Assembly (NCBI GenBank): GCA_964231325.1
Contig: CAXRIF010000003.1
Location: 1,079,313-1,143,312 of the forward strand
Source of the DNA: Rickettsiales bacterium
Lineage (GTDB): Bacteria; Pseudomonadota; Alphaproteobacteria; Rickettsiales; SXRF01
Direction of reading: 5' to 3'
Length of the DNA: 64,000 nt
Shown here: one piece after another, positions 36,644 to 44,244 of the stretch
How the letters are laid out: the number at the start of each line of letters is the position of its first letter
Position numbering within the stretch: the stretch's first letter is position 1
The notes under the pieces: model-generated
What the model saw: only the letters and a program-made list of their open reading frames with translations
Databases searched by the model: none
Told to the model about the DNA's origin: nothing
Program-made: the position numbers and the translations under genes

Positions 36644-36778
36644 CTACGCTTGGTTAGCGGGCGCCCGGCGATCGCATGGGCTATCATCAGCACCTACACA
36701 TGGGCTTTTTAAATCAGGTGTTTTGTTGCTGCACGCAGCTAGCGCCAAAAAAATTCCCAATATCGCTACTTTATACAT
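36644..36778 (-). CDS. 44-aa lipoprotein (unannotated, below ORF-track cutoff), VirB7-like candidate
   Basis: Reverse-strand translation gives MYKVAILGIFLALAACSNKTPDLKSPCVGADDSPCDRRAPANQA. AAGGAG lies 5 nt before the ATG at 36778. Lipobox L-A-A-C. It sits 63 nt downstream of the last virB6 paralog on the same strand. Confidence 0.6.
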   Translation of the reverse strand: MYKVAILGIFLALAACSNKTPDLKSPCVGADDSPCDRRAPANQA

Positions 36779-36841
36779 GTCGGCTCCTTGCGTTAATCTA
36801 CATCTAAATTCTACTCATCACGAGAAAAATAGCAATGCTAA

Positions 36842-38254
36842 TCATCGCTTACCAGGCATCCCCCGCATACGCTCCATTGTTTCTGCAACGGTTCCTAGCC
36901 CGCCTTTATCAGTCATTGTCTGCTGCCAGTTCTGCATAGCGGGATTTACTCCACCCGGAGTTCCTCTATAACCCGGCCCACCAGCTAAGCTGTTGTTACG
37001 GCCACCACCGCCGCCACCAAGCCAACCAGCAAGCGGCCCCTGCATGGTAGCTAGGTTGGTACTAGCACCCGCAATATCACTCGCGATCATGATAATGATG
37101 TGATTAAAGCGGCTGGCTAGCTCTGCCAGCATTAAGAAAATGAGGATATGCATGACGTCTATCGGGAATACTGGGGCGTCAGGCTCGCCATCTACCCCCG
37201 CCCATGATCGCAACCCACCATAAGGCTCCCACGTACCTGTGTCATCATTCCACAATGCAAAACGCCAATAATGAACAGCAAATGGTGTGCCGCGTACACT
37301 ATCTATCCATTCTGTCCAGCACACTGGGTTTGCCAGGATATTTTCCATTGATGCAAGTATGAGTGCCACAAAAAAGGCAAAAAAGGTGAATAGGAAAATT
37401 GGCTGCAAGGATGCATTGACCAGCTGGTTCAGCCAGCCATCAAACAAGTGCCGCGTTCGGGTGAACAATAAAAAGGCCAAGAAGACTGGAGAAAGCCCAA
37501 TTAATAGCGCCCGCAACACCACCGCCATTAGGTACACCCATATTGCGGTAAATAATGCACGCAGGAAAGACCCCAGGGATAAGAGCAGTAAGATACCAAA
37601 TATCACTCCATATGGTCCAGTAAAGAACACCGCCAGAATGGTAACCGCCATCTTAGCAGAGACGGCTGTAGCAATAACCTGATCTAATATAGCAAACGGA
37701 GTATCTGGATCATAGTTTCCTGCCACACCTCCAACAGTAATGCTTGTAAGCTCCATAATAATATCATCTGTGCCCTCATCAAAAAAGGTAAATAGGAAGA
37801 GAACCAGATCGTACCAAACCGTCCAAAAATACTGGCTTATTAGACCAGCAATGATCCCCAGCTTTACCGCGCGGATAAAAAAGTCATAAACCGTGAGCTG
37901 CACCATGCCGAAGGTGAATAGAATACCATAAATTGCGATATAGATTGCAACCGCTGCAGCAAGTATTTCTCCAAAACTATTATCATAATAAATGGATACA
38001 AAAATACGCCCAGCGCTTGCGTATACCACCCCTTTTATATCCGTTACGATAGCAGAAATCAGACCACTTCCAGGCTCACTGGCCGCATAAGGAATATCGA
38101 ATTGAGGGTCATGCGTACATGTACCTGGAGGGTGGGCAGCTAGTGCTTCAGAGCTCCAGCCAATTGTCGACACACTCATTATGATTACAAGTCCGATCGC
38201 TATTAAATTAACGCCGGGTTTTGTAAAAATTTTCTCTATCCATGCCTGTATCAT
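36842..38254 (-). CDS. virB6: type IV secretion VirB6/TrbL-family protein (paralog 3)
   Basis: 470-aa polytopic protein. Contains FLLFTRTRHLFDGWLNQLVNASLQPIFLF, a motif shared with the two upstream paralogs. Gly-rich C-tail. Confidence 0.8.
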   Translation of the reverse strand: MIQAWIEKIFTKPGVNLIAIGLVIIMSVSTIGWSSEALAAHPPGTCTHDPQFDIPYAASEPGSGLISAIVTDIKGVVYASAGRIFVSIYYDNSFGEILAAAVAIYIAIYGILFTFGMVQLTVYDFFIRAVKLGIIAGLISQYFWTVWYDLVLFLFTFFDEGTDDIIMELTSITVGGVAGNYDPDTPFAILDQVIATAVSAKMAVTILAVFFTGPYGVIFGILLLLSLGSFLRALFTAIWVYLMAVVLRALLIGLSPVFLAFLLFTRTRHLFDGWLNQLVNASLQPIFLFTFFAFFVALILASMENILANPVCWTEWIDSVRGTPFAVHYWRFALWNDDTGTWEPYGGLRSWAGVDGEPDAPVFPIDVMHILIFLMLAELASRFNHIIIMIASDIAGASTNLATMQGPLAGWLGGGGGGRNNSLAGGPGYRGTPGGVNPAMQNWQQTMTDKGGLGTVAETMERMRGMPGKR

Positions 38255-38282
38255 AATATGTACCTAATGTGTGCCCCCACCT

Positions 38283-41536: not shown

Positions 41537-43937
41537 ATTTTTCTTTCTCCATTCTTACTCTCTCCTGAAAGTGATTCATCCAAGCTTCCGGAGCATCACC
41601 ATATCGCTCACGTACTTCATCTAATATAGCTATGGTTTCGGCACGTGCAGATAACACGTTGATCACATCATCCATCCCAGACAAATCTATTCGCGCCACC
41701 ACGACATCTTTTCCTTGTTTAACCAGAAAATAACGGCTGCCGGGATCTGTAGTTTTGAGTAGATTAAACTCTCTATCACTGACCATGAATGCTTTCTTGT
41801 ATGCATCTGTAGCTTTAGGGTTTGGCAGGAATATTTGTGTAGCCGTTTGCTGAATCAGCGTTTCACTAATCTCACTGTTAGTGGCGTCCTCCACGCTTTG
41901 TGTAGCGAACACAACCATACCATTTAGTTTACGCAGTGTTTTAAGCCAATCACGAATACGACCAGCAAACACCTTGTTATCAATTAGTGCCCACGCTTCA
42001 TCAAGTACAATAATAGTTGGCGTGCCATCCAGTGATAGGCTGATGCGATGAAACAAATAGAGGAGTGTTGGTTCCAGACTTACGCGCTCTTTAAGCACCT
42101 CTCCCATCTCGAACCCAAAAGCATTACCAATAGAAAAGTCGATAATGTCTTCCTCATTGTCAAAAAGACCTGCATATGGCCCTCCGCTATGCCACATTTT
42201 CAGACGCCCTGCGATTGTACCCGGCCCTTCAATCCCAAGAAAAGGAGCAATGTTGCGCAGTATTCTATTTTTCTTTTCTAATTTATAATTACCAGAAACC
42301 GCGTCGTTAATGCGCTCCATATCATCAGCGGTAAACGGTTCATCATGTACCGTAACTAACGTATGTAACCACTCAGCCAAAAAGGTTCTGTTCTCCGGAG
42401 TGTCTGGTAATTGTAGCGGGTTAAATCGGCATTGCTTTCCAGGCTCAATAATAGTGTATTTGCCGCCAATCGCTCGAATAAACACTTCTGCGCCACGGTC
42501 TTTATCGAAAAAGAAGGTTCGGCAATTAAATTTTTGTGCTTGTGCGCACATAAAATTTAACAGTACCGTCTTACCCGCACCGGTCGGTCCGATAATAGTA
42601 GTATGCCCAACATCACGATTATGAAAATTGAAGAAATATGGCGTACCAGACGACGTATCAAAAACCGTAACCGCATCTCCCCAATGGTTGTTGTTAATCT
42701 TACCCGTGGGATAATTATGCAAGCTGGCAAAACCCGCTAAGTTGAGCGTGCTAATATCTGAACCACGTGCGATATATTCAAAATTTGCAGGAAGCTGTGC
42801 CCAGAAAGACGGCTCCATCACAAATTTTTCTCGTGCAGGATTGATACCTATGTTTACAAGTTCTGCAATTGCAAGAGATAGCACTCTTTCCAGATCCTGC
42901 ATATTTTCTTCAAAACACATGACGGTGAGCTGATGGGGCCCAAAGGCCACATGTCCACTCATCGCCATATCTAGCGCATCACTAATCTCCGCTATCTGCG
43001 ATATAGCCGCATCTTCAGCGGCCATCATACGGCGTTGCCGTATTTGCATACGGTTGATATTCACGCTCCGATTATGAAAAGTAAACGACTGCGAAATAAT
43101 AAACTCAAACGGCAATTGCAAGAAACCATCCAGCAACCCAGCCGCCGTTGCTGGCGCATATTCCTTGATGCTAATCAATCCTGCGAAACGCTTACGTGGC
43201 GCACCCGTCACCTCAATAACACGATCGCCAAAATATTTGCGATAGATCGGTAGGGCATGCGATATTTCTGAAGCATTATAACGTACAGGGTGTGAAAATC
43301 CGCAATTCACCAGCTTCGATAAAAACTCCAAGGGCTCAGAAAAAGTGCCATGCTCATTTTCATATGTTGTCAACAAGCGAGCACCGTAATCTTTCAAAGT
43401 TGCACATAAACGATTCACTGTCTCCGCCAGCTCTTTATGCGCCTCATGCATTGTTTCTGCCTGAGCAACCTTATCACTGATTTCAGACGCCTTCTTCAGA
43501 TAGTGATGAACTTTTGCCGCCCCCTTCGTATCGGCTTTCCTTACAACTGTAATGTAGAGTTCGTTTATGTATGAATCTTTTGAATGATGTTTTTCGTGCC
43601 ATAATTTATCTACGTGAGAAGCAAAACCCGGGGGCTGCTTTCCATCCGGATATGCACTTTGACGGCGACGCACGGTATGAAACCACAAGGCGAACGTACC
43701 ATCCGCCATACTTTTGAGAAGTGAATTGCGCACCATTTTACGCATATCAACATCTTCATCATCAGCTGTTTCGAATGAAAAACCATCCAGCTTGATTATC
43801 TGGATAAATTCCTTTTTCTTCGTAACGATAGTTTCTTTATCCCAGTGATAGTGATACGGAATAAATTCGGACTCTGAAACTTCCTGTTTGGAATATGCGG
43901 CTTTATTTGTTTTACGGCGTTGTAGCTGGCTAATCAT
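41511..43937 (-). CDS. virB4: type IV secretion ATPase VirB4
   Basis: 808 aa. Walker A (GPTGAGKTV), Walker B (IIVLDEAW) and FATQS. Confidence 0.95.
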   Translation of the reverse strand: MISQLQRRKTNKAAYSKQEVSESEFIPYHYHWDKETIVTKKKEFIQIIKLDGFSFETADDEDVDMRKMVRNSLLKSMADGTFALWFHTVRRRQSAYPDGKQPPGFASHVDKLWHEKHHSKDSYINELYITVVRKADTKGAAKVHHYLKKASEISDKVAQAETMHEAHKELAETVNRLCATLKDYGARLLTTYENEHGTFSEPLEFLSKLVNCGFSHPVRYNASEISHALPIYRKYFGDRVIEVTGAPRKRFAGLISIKEYAPATAAGLLDGFLQLPFEFIISQSFTFHNRSVNINRMQIRQRRMMAAEDAAISQIAEISDALDMAMSGHVAFGPHQLTVMCFEENMQDLERVLSLAIAELVNIGINPAREKFVMEPSFWAQLPANFEYIARGSDISTLNLAGFASLHNYPTGKINNNHWGDAVTVFDTSSGTPYFFNFHNRDVGHTTIIGPTGAGKTVLLNFMCAQAQKFNCRTFFFDKDRGAEVFIRAIGGKYTIIEPGKQCRFNPLQLPDTPENRTFLAEWLHTLVTVHDEPFTADDMERINDAVSGNYKLEKKNRILRNIAPFLGIEGPGTIAGRLKMWHSGGPYAGLFDNEEDIIDFSIGNAFGFEMGEVLKERVSLEPTLLYLFHRISLSLDGTPTIIVLDEAWALIDNKVFAGRIRDWLKTLRKLNGMVVFATQSVEDATNSEISETLIQQTATQIFLPNPKATDAYKKAFMVSDREFNLLKTTDPGSRYFLVKQGKDVVVARIDLSGMDDVINVLSARAETIAILDEVRERYGDAPEAWMNHFQERVRMEKEKFAAKDLKK

Positions 43938-43944
43938 AATTTAC

Positions 43945-44244
43945 TCAATACGGGTCATAAGAATTGTTGTTTTTGTGATAGCCTCGATTGGTACATTTGA
44001 GCCCCTTACTCGCCTTAATAACCAAAAGCTCAATAGCACGCGGCTCTTTCAAACAAATCAGATAACCAATCAAATGCATAACCGGCGCGACAAATAGCAA
44101 CGTTGTAAAACTTTGCATGTTAATGAAAACAATTAGATTCACCGCGGCATTGATTACGAAGTACATGTAGCTCACCCCAAGGATCATTGTGGGGCGAGTC
44201 AAGCCCTGAAAAAGCGGATCAGATTGAAGGCGTCCAGATGACAT
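43945..44244 (-). CDS. virB3: type IV secretion protein VirB3
   Basis: 99 aa. DPLFQGLTRPTMILGVSY plus two TM helices. Immediately upstream of virB4. Confidence 0.9.
   Translation of the reverse strand: MSSGRLQSDPLFQGLTRPTMILGVSYMYFVINAAVNLIVFINMQSFTTLLFVAPVMHLIGYLICLKEPRAIELLVIKASKGLKCTNRGYHKNNNSYDPY

Follow-up and report, generated by a model that had tools for sequence, protein, structure and literature searches.

The window considered here is a stretch of 64,000 nucleotides (nt) from the Rickettsiales assembly GCA_964231325.1 (contig CAXRIF010000003.1, positions 1,079,313 to 1,143,312 of the forward strand). Its minus strand carries, at 36842-44244, five co-oriented and consecutive genes in the order virB3-virB4-virB6a-virB6b-virB6c. 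The locus is very probably islet A, the virB3-virB4-multicopy virB6 unit, of a split type IV secretion system (T4SS) of the Rickettsiales vir homolog (rvh) kind, located on the chromosome of a basal, non-reduced member of the Rickettsiales. We assign it to rvh islet A because the VirB4 sequence passes the equivalog model NF010473 and because close relatives have been published as rvh-bearing basal Rickettsiales. The same arrangement was already published for this group in 2022, and work from 2024 enlarged on it with a data set that contains a close relative; no new kind of system is claimed. What is new is that about 50 species keep a fixed, orthologous set of three VirB6 proteins, and that the upstream DNA contains a conserved box.

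A preliminary description of the window had reported a minus-strand operon of virB3 and virB4 followed by genes for proteins of 603, 481 and 470 amino acids (aa). The open reading frames (ORFs) are exactly as described and all five products pass their family thresholds. The span given for them, 36644-44244, does enclose the five genes but begins with 198 nt of intergenic DNA, since the last gene ends at 36842.

Identity of the proteins and of the host

VirB3 matches PF05101 in Pfam (81 bits, E 7e-23, cut-off 23.9) and passes the NCBIfam equivalog NF010474 (115.7 bits, cut-off 74). VirB4, in which the Walker A and Walker B motifs are both intact, matches the Pfam family CagE_TrbE_VirB (PF03135, 170 bits) and, over its full length, TIGR00929 (839 bits, cut-off 643). 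It passes NF010473 (1234 bits, cut-off 1050), whereas the Agrobacterium-type VirB4 model NF010427 gives 452 bits, far below its cut-off of 957, and the NCBIfam models for TrbE score far under theirs. Out of more than 5000 homologs of VirB4 on plasmids, the best match reaches 42% identity. The RvhB4-I contigs of UBA6149 and UBA6189 in Table S1 of Lehman et al. (2024, PMC11077975) correspond to two of the related loci recovered here (L050 and L045, respectively; 66-67% identity). The sequence comparisons support classification of VirB4 as an RvhB4-I type ortholog, because NF010473 is passed, NF010427 and the TrbE models fail and those published contigs are recovered among the relatives.

The three proteins encoded downstream of virB4 are all polytopic, with multiple hydrophobic segments, and all match the TrbL/VirB6 family PF04610 above its gathering score of 25.9. 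They share only about 25% pairwise identity over the core (a and b align over 314 residues), yet a core tryptophan is kept in each, as Trp321 in VirB6a, Trp287 in VirB6b and Trp274 in VirB6c. This tryptophan is essential in Agrobacterium VirB6. Trp321 is invariant in 37 virB6a orthologs and the core tryptophan is likewise invariant in the alignment of virB6c orthologs. A common core of the form F-x2-T/R-x3-F-x2-W-L had been proposed for the three proteins; the core with its tryptophan is indeed present in all of them, but the register is inexact in the 481-aa VirB6b, where the motif reads FATQERYFNRWL.

A profile built from 43 virB6c orthologs matches TrwI, the VirB6 protein of plasmid R388, in the Protein Data Bank (PDB) with E 8.7e-7. 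The AlphaFold2 (AF2) model of VirB6c has a predicted local distance difference test score (pLDDT) of 82 and a predicted template modelling score of 0.71. Its top nine PDB matches are all TrwI/VirB6 chains from cryo-electron microscopy of the R388 system, the best with E 7e-6 and a template modelling score of 0.67 normalized to the target. For VirB6a the model has a pLDDT of 76 and the top eight PDB matches are again all TrwI/VirB6 (E 0.013, probability 1.0). TrwI/VirB6 of R388 gave the only significant matches in the PDB. The predicted structures thus establish the VirB6 fold for paralogs a and c, the two that were modelled. VirB6a has about 180 additional residues following the TrbL core (approximately 352-530), which we considered as a VirB5-like segment. 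The idea gained no support: every chain listed by the whole-chain fold search was TrwI/VirB6 and none was VirB5. The region is partly of low confidence in the model.

The N-termini of the three VirB6 proteins each consist of a hydrophobic stretch followed by the motif AFS, AHA or ALA, and have the appearance of cleavable signal sequences. The N-termini would, on that basis, be periplasmic. In VirB6a this depends on the choice of start codon. Starting at the ATG at 41464, as in the public annotation, removes this hydrophobic segment, which resembles a signal peptide; starting at the TTG at 41536, which has GGAG 9 nt upstream, restores it.

Which organism carries the locus? The operon is identical in the metagenome-assembled genome (MAG) GCA_041259855.1 (contig JBETKE010000002.1), and in a second assembly of the species, GCA_048537145.1, 51 of 7403 positions differ. 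Relatives of the VirB4 form at least 120 clusters at 70-91% identity, all metagenomic; the best 120 matches are all RvhB4-I orthologs. A VirB4-anchored scan with one genome per species gave 80 loci, every one from an uncultured MAG labelled 'Rickettsiales/Alphaproteobacteria'. The closest is from MAG CoA8N_M8 (VirB4 89% identical), which carries both RvhB4-I and RvhB4-II (Lehman et al. 2024, Table S1, PMC11077975). The VirB4 relatives also include MAGs UBA6149, UBA6178, UBA6189 and RS372, which have been placed in Candidatus Mitibacteraceae (Schön et al. 2022, PMC9352585); identity to the named Mitibacteraceae MAGs is 66-68%. The basal Rickettsiales families are described as metabolically rich, possibly free-living and equipped with an rvh T4SS that includes duplications (Schön et al. 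2022, PMC9352585), and further basal families confirm that picture (Castelli et al. 2024, PMC10847448). VirB4 similarity and the published placement of relatives point to a probable host in or beside this basal group, which includes Mitibacteraceae and Athabascaceae.

The identification as rvh, proposed at the outset, is therefore upheld by the NF010474 and NF010473 scores together with relatives published as rvh-bearing. It had been left open whether the locus was a less derived or an independently evolved version. The former is supported, the locus being a version of the known system that belongs to a metabolically rich, early-branching lineage; independent evolution is not supported.

The remaining vir genes are not found nearby. 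A Pfam scan of all window ORFs of at least 150 aa gave housekeeping genes and no other vir family. In phmmer searches the complete virB1-virB11/virD4 set of a Sinorhizobium plasmid was compared with stop-to-stop segments of at least 40 aa from the window and 83 related loci, and only VirB3, VirB4 and VirB6 were matched, with the reservation that very small, fast-evolving VirB2 and VirB7 proteins might escape such searches. The earlier statement that virB1, 2, 5, 8, 9, 10, 11 and virD4 are missing from the 64 kb stands with that same reservation. With the Sinorhizobium VirB8 query the R. typhi VirB8-like structure 4O3V in the PDB came up only at E 1.3. Extending the search by 10 kb past each window end, to about 84 kb in total, added no vir genes; one flank carries an isc cluster and the other has polyhydroxyalkanoate (PHA) synthase and hipA. 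VirB5 in particular had no phmmer match within the approximately 84 kb or in related loci. A contiguous virB1-11 operon of plasmid type, which would have told against the rvh proposal, is absent here and from the 80 related loci (DNA within 10 kb of VirB4).

Two candidates for additional components were discarded. The SLT_2 transglycosylase at 7645-8466, a possible VirB1, is of MltB type and belongs to a housekeeping cluster (rlpA-dacC) at a distance of 36 kb. Small genes at 59378-61835 were considered as VirB2 or VirB7, but their sequences resemble phage tail-fibre or collagen-like proteins and not pilins. These are five consecutive minus-strand genes encoding proteins of 203, 158, 170, 118 and 130 aa without a Pfam match, one of which contains a GxxGxx run like that of collagen and weakly matches a tail-fibre entry in PHROG. 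They adjoin a tRNA-His gene and may be a remnant related to a phage or gene transfer agent.

The ordered virB6 array

The order B3-B4-B6a-B6b-B6c is seen in every related locus with sufficient flanking sequence. Where at least 1.5 kb is available beyond the last VirB6 gene the array was taken as complete, and 52 arrays qualify; 45 have three VirB6 copies, six have four and one has two. The fourth gene in the four-copy arrays is an extra c-like copy. Proteins score best against the protein at the same position in other species in 49 of 49 cases for a, 45 of 49 for b and 49 of 49 for c. Each position is its own orthogroup, and the VirB6 triplication therefore predates the radiation of the clade. 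Median lengths at positions a, b and c are 542, 481 and 462 aa (49 related arrays). Long VirB6 proteins do occur in some relatives, for example one of 1142 aa in C_No_T20_B_bin.125.

Across about 50 species VirB4 is 61-91% identical with Walker motifs intact. The VirB6 proteins evolve far faster. Compared to CoA8N_M8, where VirB4 is 89% identical, VirB6a, b and c are only 49, 50 and 59% identical, respectively. Between the two differing assemblies of the species there are 42 synonymous and nine non-synonymous differences, none of the latter in virB4, and the ratio of non-synonymous to synonymous polymorphism (pN/pS) is 0.06. The islet genes are under purifying selection.

The flanking genes, encoding DAO, PAP2, hydrolase, AAA_25 and AddB proteins, are kept in 12-22 relatives, and this conservation indicates stable chromosomal inheritance. 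One MAG, SRP199154_co2_87, has two complete loci of the B3-B4-B6x3 type (L015 and L069), with VirB4 proteins that are 83% and 64% identical to the one described here. The likelier cause is that two lineages were mixed in one bin, not that the islet was duplicated.

Upstream DNA and neighbouring genes

The five genes are packed like a single transcription unit. A gap of 7 nt separates virB3 from virB4, virB6a and virB6b overlap by 4 nt and a gap of 28 nt precedes virB6c. The virB4/virB6a junction depends on the start codon chosen: from the TTG the two genes overlap by 26 nt, and the ATG of the public annotation leaves 47 nt between them. A ribosome-binding site, AGGA, lies 9 nt 5' of the virB3 ATG. 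At the distal end a hairpin with a T-run is a candidate terminator on account of its position, because sites of this kind are no commoner than in shuffled sequence. The G+C content (GC) of the operon is 0.446, compared to 0.458 for the rest of the window. Coordinates of the genes and associated features are given in Table 1.

Table 1. Genes and non-coding features of the virB3-virB4-virB6 locus (window coordinates).
Feature	Position	Strand	Details
virB3	43945-44244	-	99 aa; DPLFQGLTRPTM at residue 9
virB4	41511-43937	-	808 aa; Walker A motif GPTGAGKT (residue 450), Walker B motif VLDEAW (residue 644)
virB6 paralog a	39725-41536	-	603 aa from TTG; 579 aa in public annotation; PF04610 52.7 bits
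virB6 paralog b	38283-39728	-	481 aa; PF04610 38.0 bits
virB6 paralog c	36842-38254	-	470 aa; PF04610 62.9 bits
Terminator-like hairpin and T-run	36831-36849	-	Overlaps virB6c stop codon; consensus scan
Tandem 11-bp direct repeat, TGCAACAAAAC x2	44340-44361	-	Perfect repeat, about 100 nt 5' of virB3
Extended -10-like element, TGtTATTAT	44329-44337	-	Directly downstream of the repeats; putative promoter
Second conserved non-coding block, TTCAnnnTTTnTTAAnnAACCTnTTGTAAA	44272-44301	-	Between putative -10 and virB3 ribosome-binding site

Three elements, the tandem box, the -10-like element and the second block, provide the only conserved columns in upstream DNA that is otherwise unalignable among 20 species; at the -10-like element the conserved columns read 'T.TG.TA..aT'. 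The tandem repeat of TGCAACAAAAC is unique in the window and had no match in 100 shuffles. In degenerate form, TGCMAYAAAAYTGCAAYA, the box occurs once per locus in 17 loci, always 5' of virB3 and nowhere else in those loci. Two 11-bp direct repeats placed one helical turn apart at the -35 position resemble the sites of OmpR/PhoB-family activators, such as the pho and vir boxes. The tandem box is a candidate activator box overlapping the -35 region. The TGtTATTAT site was not listed in a scan with a generic promoter consensus, for which promoter-like sites were no commoner than in shuffles. The second block is a candidate operator, second promoter or element of the 5' untranslated region; no Rfam family matches the upstream region.

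The box was also assessed as a tag for co-regulated islets. Among the matches listed in a scan of metagenome contigs just one of 120 loci is a virB3 locus, two VirD4-like matches unrelated to the VirB4 set lie far from the motif, and the scan was judged uninformative for this purpose. Three metagenome contigs from related JGI samples (L118, L120 and L137), which lack T4SS genes, contain the 18-nt box pattern twice, inverted and approximately 715-745 nt apart. This pair is probably an unrelated repeat.

The remainder of the window holds phaR, aconitase, ccmAB, metG, an aroA-cmk fusion, rpsA, trpF/B/A, addA/addB, a DAO-type oxidase (dadA-like), sodB, secD, galU, ugd, coaD and the C-terminus of gyrA. 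The trp, aroA, PHA, dadA and galU/ugd neighbours noted previously are thus all accounted for (phaR, aroA, trpFBA, the DAO/dadA-like gene, galU and ugd). The fusion is a single 652-aa ORF at 16445-18403 (+) that joins 5-enolpyruvylshikimate-3-phosphate synthase (aroA) with cytidylate kinase (cmk). Three ORFs among the housekeeping genes have no Pfam or PHROG match, namely 19168-20910 (+, 580 aa), 15693-16445 (+, 250 aa) and 52552-53277 (-, 241 aa); the first overlaps with the beginning of a 279-aa ORF on the minus strand that has a weak capsule-synthesis match. The only tRNA gene in the window, tRNA-His at 61994-62070 (-), is 18 kb from the operon, and no integrase or relaxase family turned up in the Pfam scans of ORFs of at least 150 aa.

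Convergent on virB6c is a gene at 34988-36643 (+) whose product of 551 aa ends in an AAA_25 (RepA/DnaB-like) domain (Pfam 5e-20; PHROG 'DNA primase/helicase' 8e-14), while its N-terminal half has no family match. It adjoins the islet in the 12 closest genomes only, with no other mobile-element genes around.

Comparison with other systems and alternative readings

In Rickettsia the rvh genes form an 'archipelago' in which islet A is virB3-virB4a-virB6a-e (Gillespie et al. 2009, PMC2653234). The locus described here resembles that islet in having virB3, a virB4 with intact Walker motifs and tandem, highly diverged VirB6 genes whose conservation is limited to the surroundings of the TrbL core and its tryptophan, and in being separated from other vir genes with no virB5 nearby. 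It differs in the number and size of the VirB6 proteins, three of 470-603 aa as opposed to five of 674-1154 aa. The Rickettsia proteins RvhB6a-e average 1055, 674, 971, 886 and 1154 aa (PMC2653234), which bears out the earlier remark that the present paralogs are shorter, and at 603, 481 and 470 aa all three lie below the approximately 670-1150 aa of Rickettsiaceae-type RvhB6. The long flanking extensions of the Rickettsia proteins, 'seemingly unique to Rickettsiaceae' (PMC2653234), are largely missing. The host differs too, being metabolically rich and of about 45% GC whereas Rickettsia is reduced and AT-rich.

The closest correspondence is with the rvh loci of basal Rickettsiales. UBA6149, UBA6178, UBA6189, RS372 and CoA8N_M8 share the B3-B4-B6x3 locus, and a genome context with amino-acid biosynthesis genes fits the published description, although the species in the window is represented by a distinct and later-deposited MAG.

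VirB3, VirB4 and VirB6 are homologous to components of the R388 Trw and Agrobacterium VirB systems (PDB codes 7O3V and 8RT9). In the inner membrane TrwI makes up the stalk's pentameric base, and it is this protein that the predicted VirB6 fold matches. The R388 and Agrobacterium systems, however, have only one VirB6 protein, about 300-340 aa long (TrwI, 342 aa), with VirB5 placed atop it, and one contiguous virB1-11 operon, in contrast to the split locus, three VirB6 proteins of 470-603 aa and lack of a nearby VirB5 seen here.

These comparisons allow a mechanism to be outlined. The five genes supply the inner-membrane portion of the machine. VirB4 would be the ATPase that powers assembly and transport, with VirB3 as its small membrane partner, and by analogy with solved conjugative systems hexamers of VirB4 may combine with VirB3 in a cytoplasmic and inner-membrane motor. 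The three diverged VirB6 proteins would form the channel through the inner membrane and also the stalk's base. We suggest that they either co-assemble or alternate at the position occupied by the VirB6 pentamer in R388, and that transcription would start from a promoter controlled through the tandem 11-bp box. Judging from the rvh literature, VirB8, B9, B10, VirB11, VirD4, VirB2 and a second VirB4 would be encoded elsewhere in the genome, and all the parts together would form a working protein-secretion system. For free-living members it has been proposed that the system kills bacteria in the vicinity or serves as a defence against protists (Schön et al. 2022, PMC9352585).

A bolder version of this scheme can be put forward, which we regard as an outside chance. 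The compact, ordered a-b-c trio would be the ancestral rvh state, a heteromeric VirB6 base would replace both VirB6 and the missing VirB5, and the box would be an OmpR/PhoB-like operator. If that were so, the regulon of the box regulator would reveal the other islets and the effectors of free-living Rickettsiales.

Certain points weigh against the assignment to rvh islet A in a basal lineage. The other vir genes were sought over about 84 kb, and the rest of the rvh set is supplied by the literature. In length the VirB6 proteins fall far short of their Rickettsia counterparts. Family-level placement of the host is based on VirB4 similarity and published lists. NF010473 is taken here to be a Rickettsiales-specific equivalog. 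Finally, we infer both the joint assembly of the VirB6 trio and the function suggested for the tandem box.

Three questions should be addressed in weighing alternatives. Is the islet part of a functional machine? If it is, does that machine export proteins? Is the locus native to the chromosome?

An orphan or decaying module, in which the other T4SS parts have been lost so that there is no working machine, or the proteins have been re-used for another membrane function, is improbable. It would explain why no other vir gene occurs within about 84 kb, and a few Rickettsiales do have incomplete sets (Castelli et al. 2024, PMC10847448). However, decay is difficult to reconcile with a five-gene order kept in about 50 species, with the conservation of VirB4 and its Walker motifs over the same range, or with a pN/pS of 0.06 and the absence of frameshifts. 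The nearest published relative also has RvhB4-II, and a full rvh system is reported in basal Rickettsiales.

That the same machine might serve for DNA uptake, release or conjugation, and not for the secretion of protein effectors, we consider very improbable. T4SSs of this type include DNA-transfer systems, rvh VirB7 and VirB9 have affinities to the ComB competence proteins (Gillespie et al. 2009, PMC2653234) and the Wolbachia rvh system makes long pili. Against this, there is no relaxase and no context resembling an origin of transfer near the islet, and the rvh systems that have been characterized secrete proteins (PMC11077975).

A recent insertion of P-type conjugation genes from a plasmid or an integrative and conjugative element, or a split system that evolved independently of rvh, merits almost no credence: VirB3, VirB4 and VirB6 are common to conjugative systems and a RepA/DnaB-like AAA_25 gene adjoins virB6c, but that gene is limited to the 12 closest genomes, the nearest plasmid VirB4 is distant, NF010473 is passed while NF010427 and the TrbE models are far under their cut-offs, base composition equals that of the flanks, chromosomal synteny is kept across many species, and the window scans found no relaxase, coupling protein, integrase or flanking tRNA at the locus. 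Nor does the locus have any of the marks of a conjugative P-type T4SS, these being a contiguous virB1-11 operon, a coupling protein, a relaxase and a mobile element.

We return to the reading of the locus as rvh islet A. The rvh T4SS is the hallmark apparatus for host interaction in Rickettsia, Wolbachia, Anaplasma and Ehrlichia, and the reason why it has several VirB6 proteins is still termed a mystery (bioRxiv 10.1101/2025.08.29.673095). An early-branching, non-reduced lineage with three short, orthologous VirB6 proteins and a conserved upstream box would offer a simpler comparison set with which to approach the roles of the paralogs and the switching of the islet.

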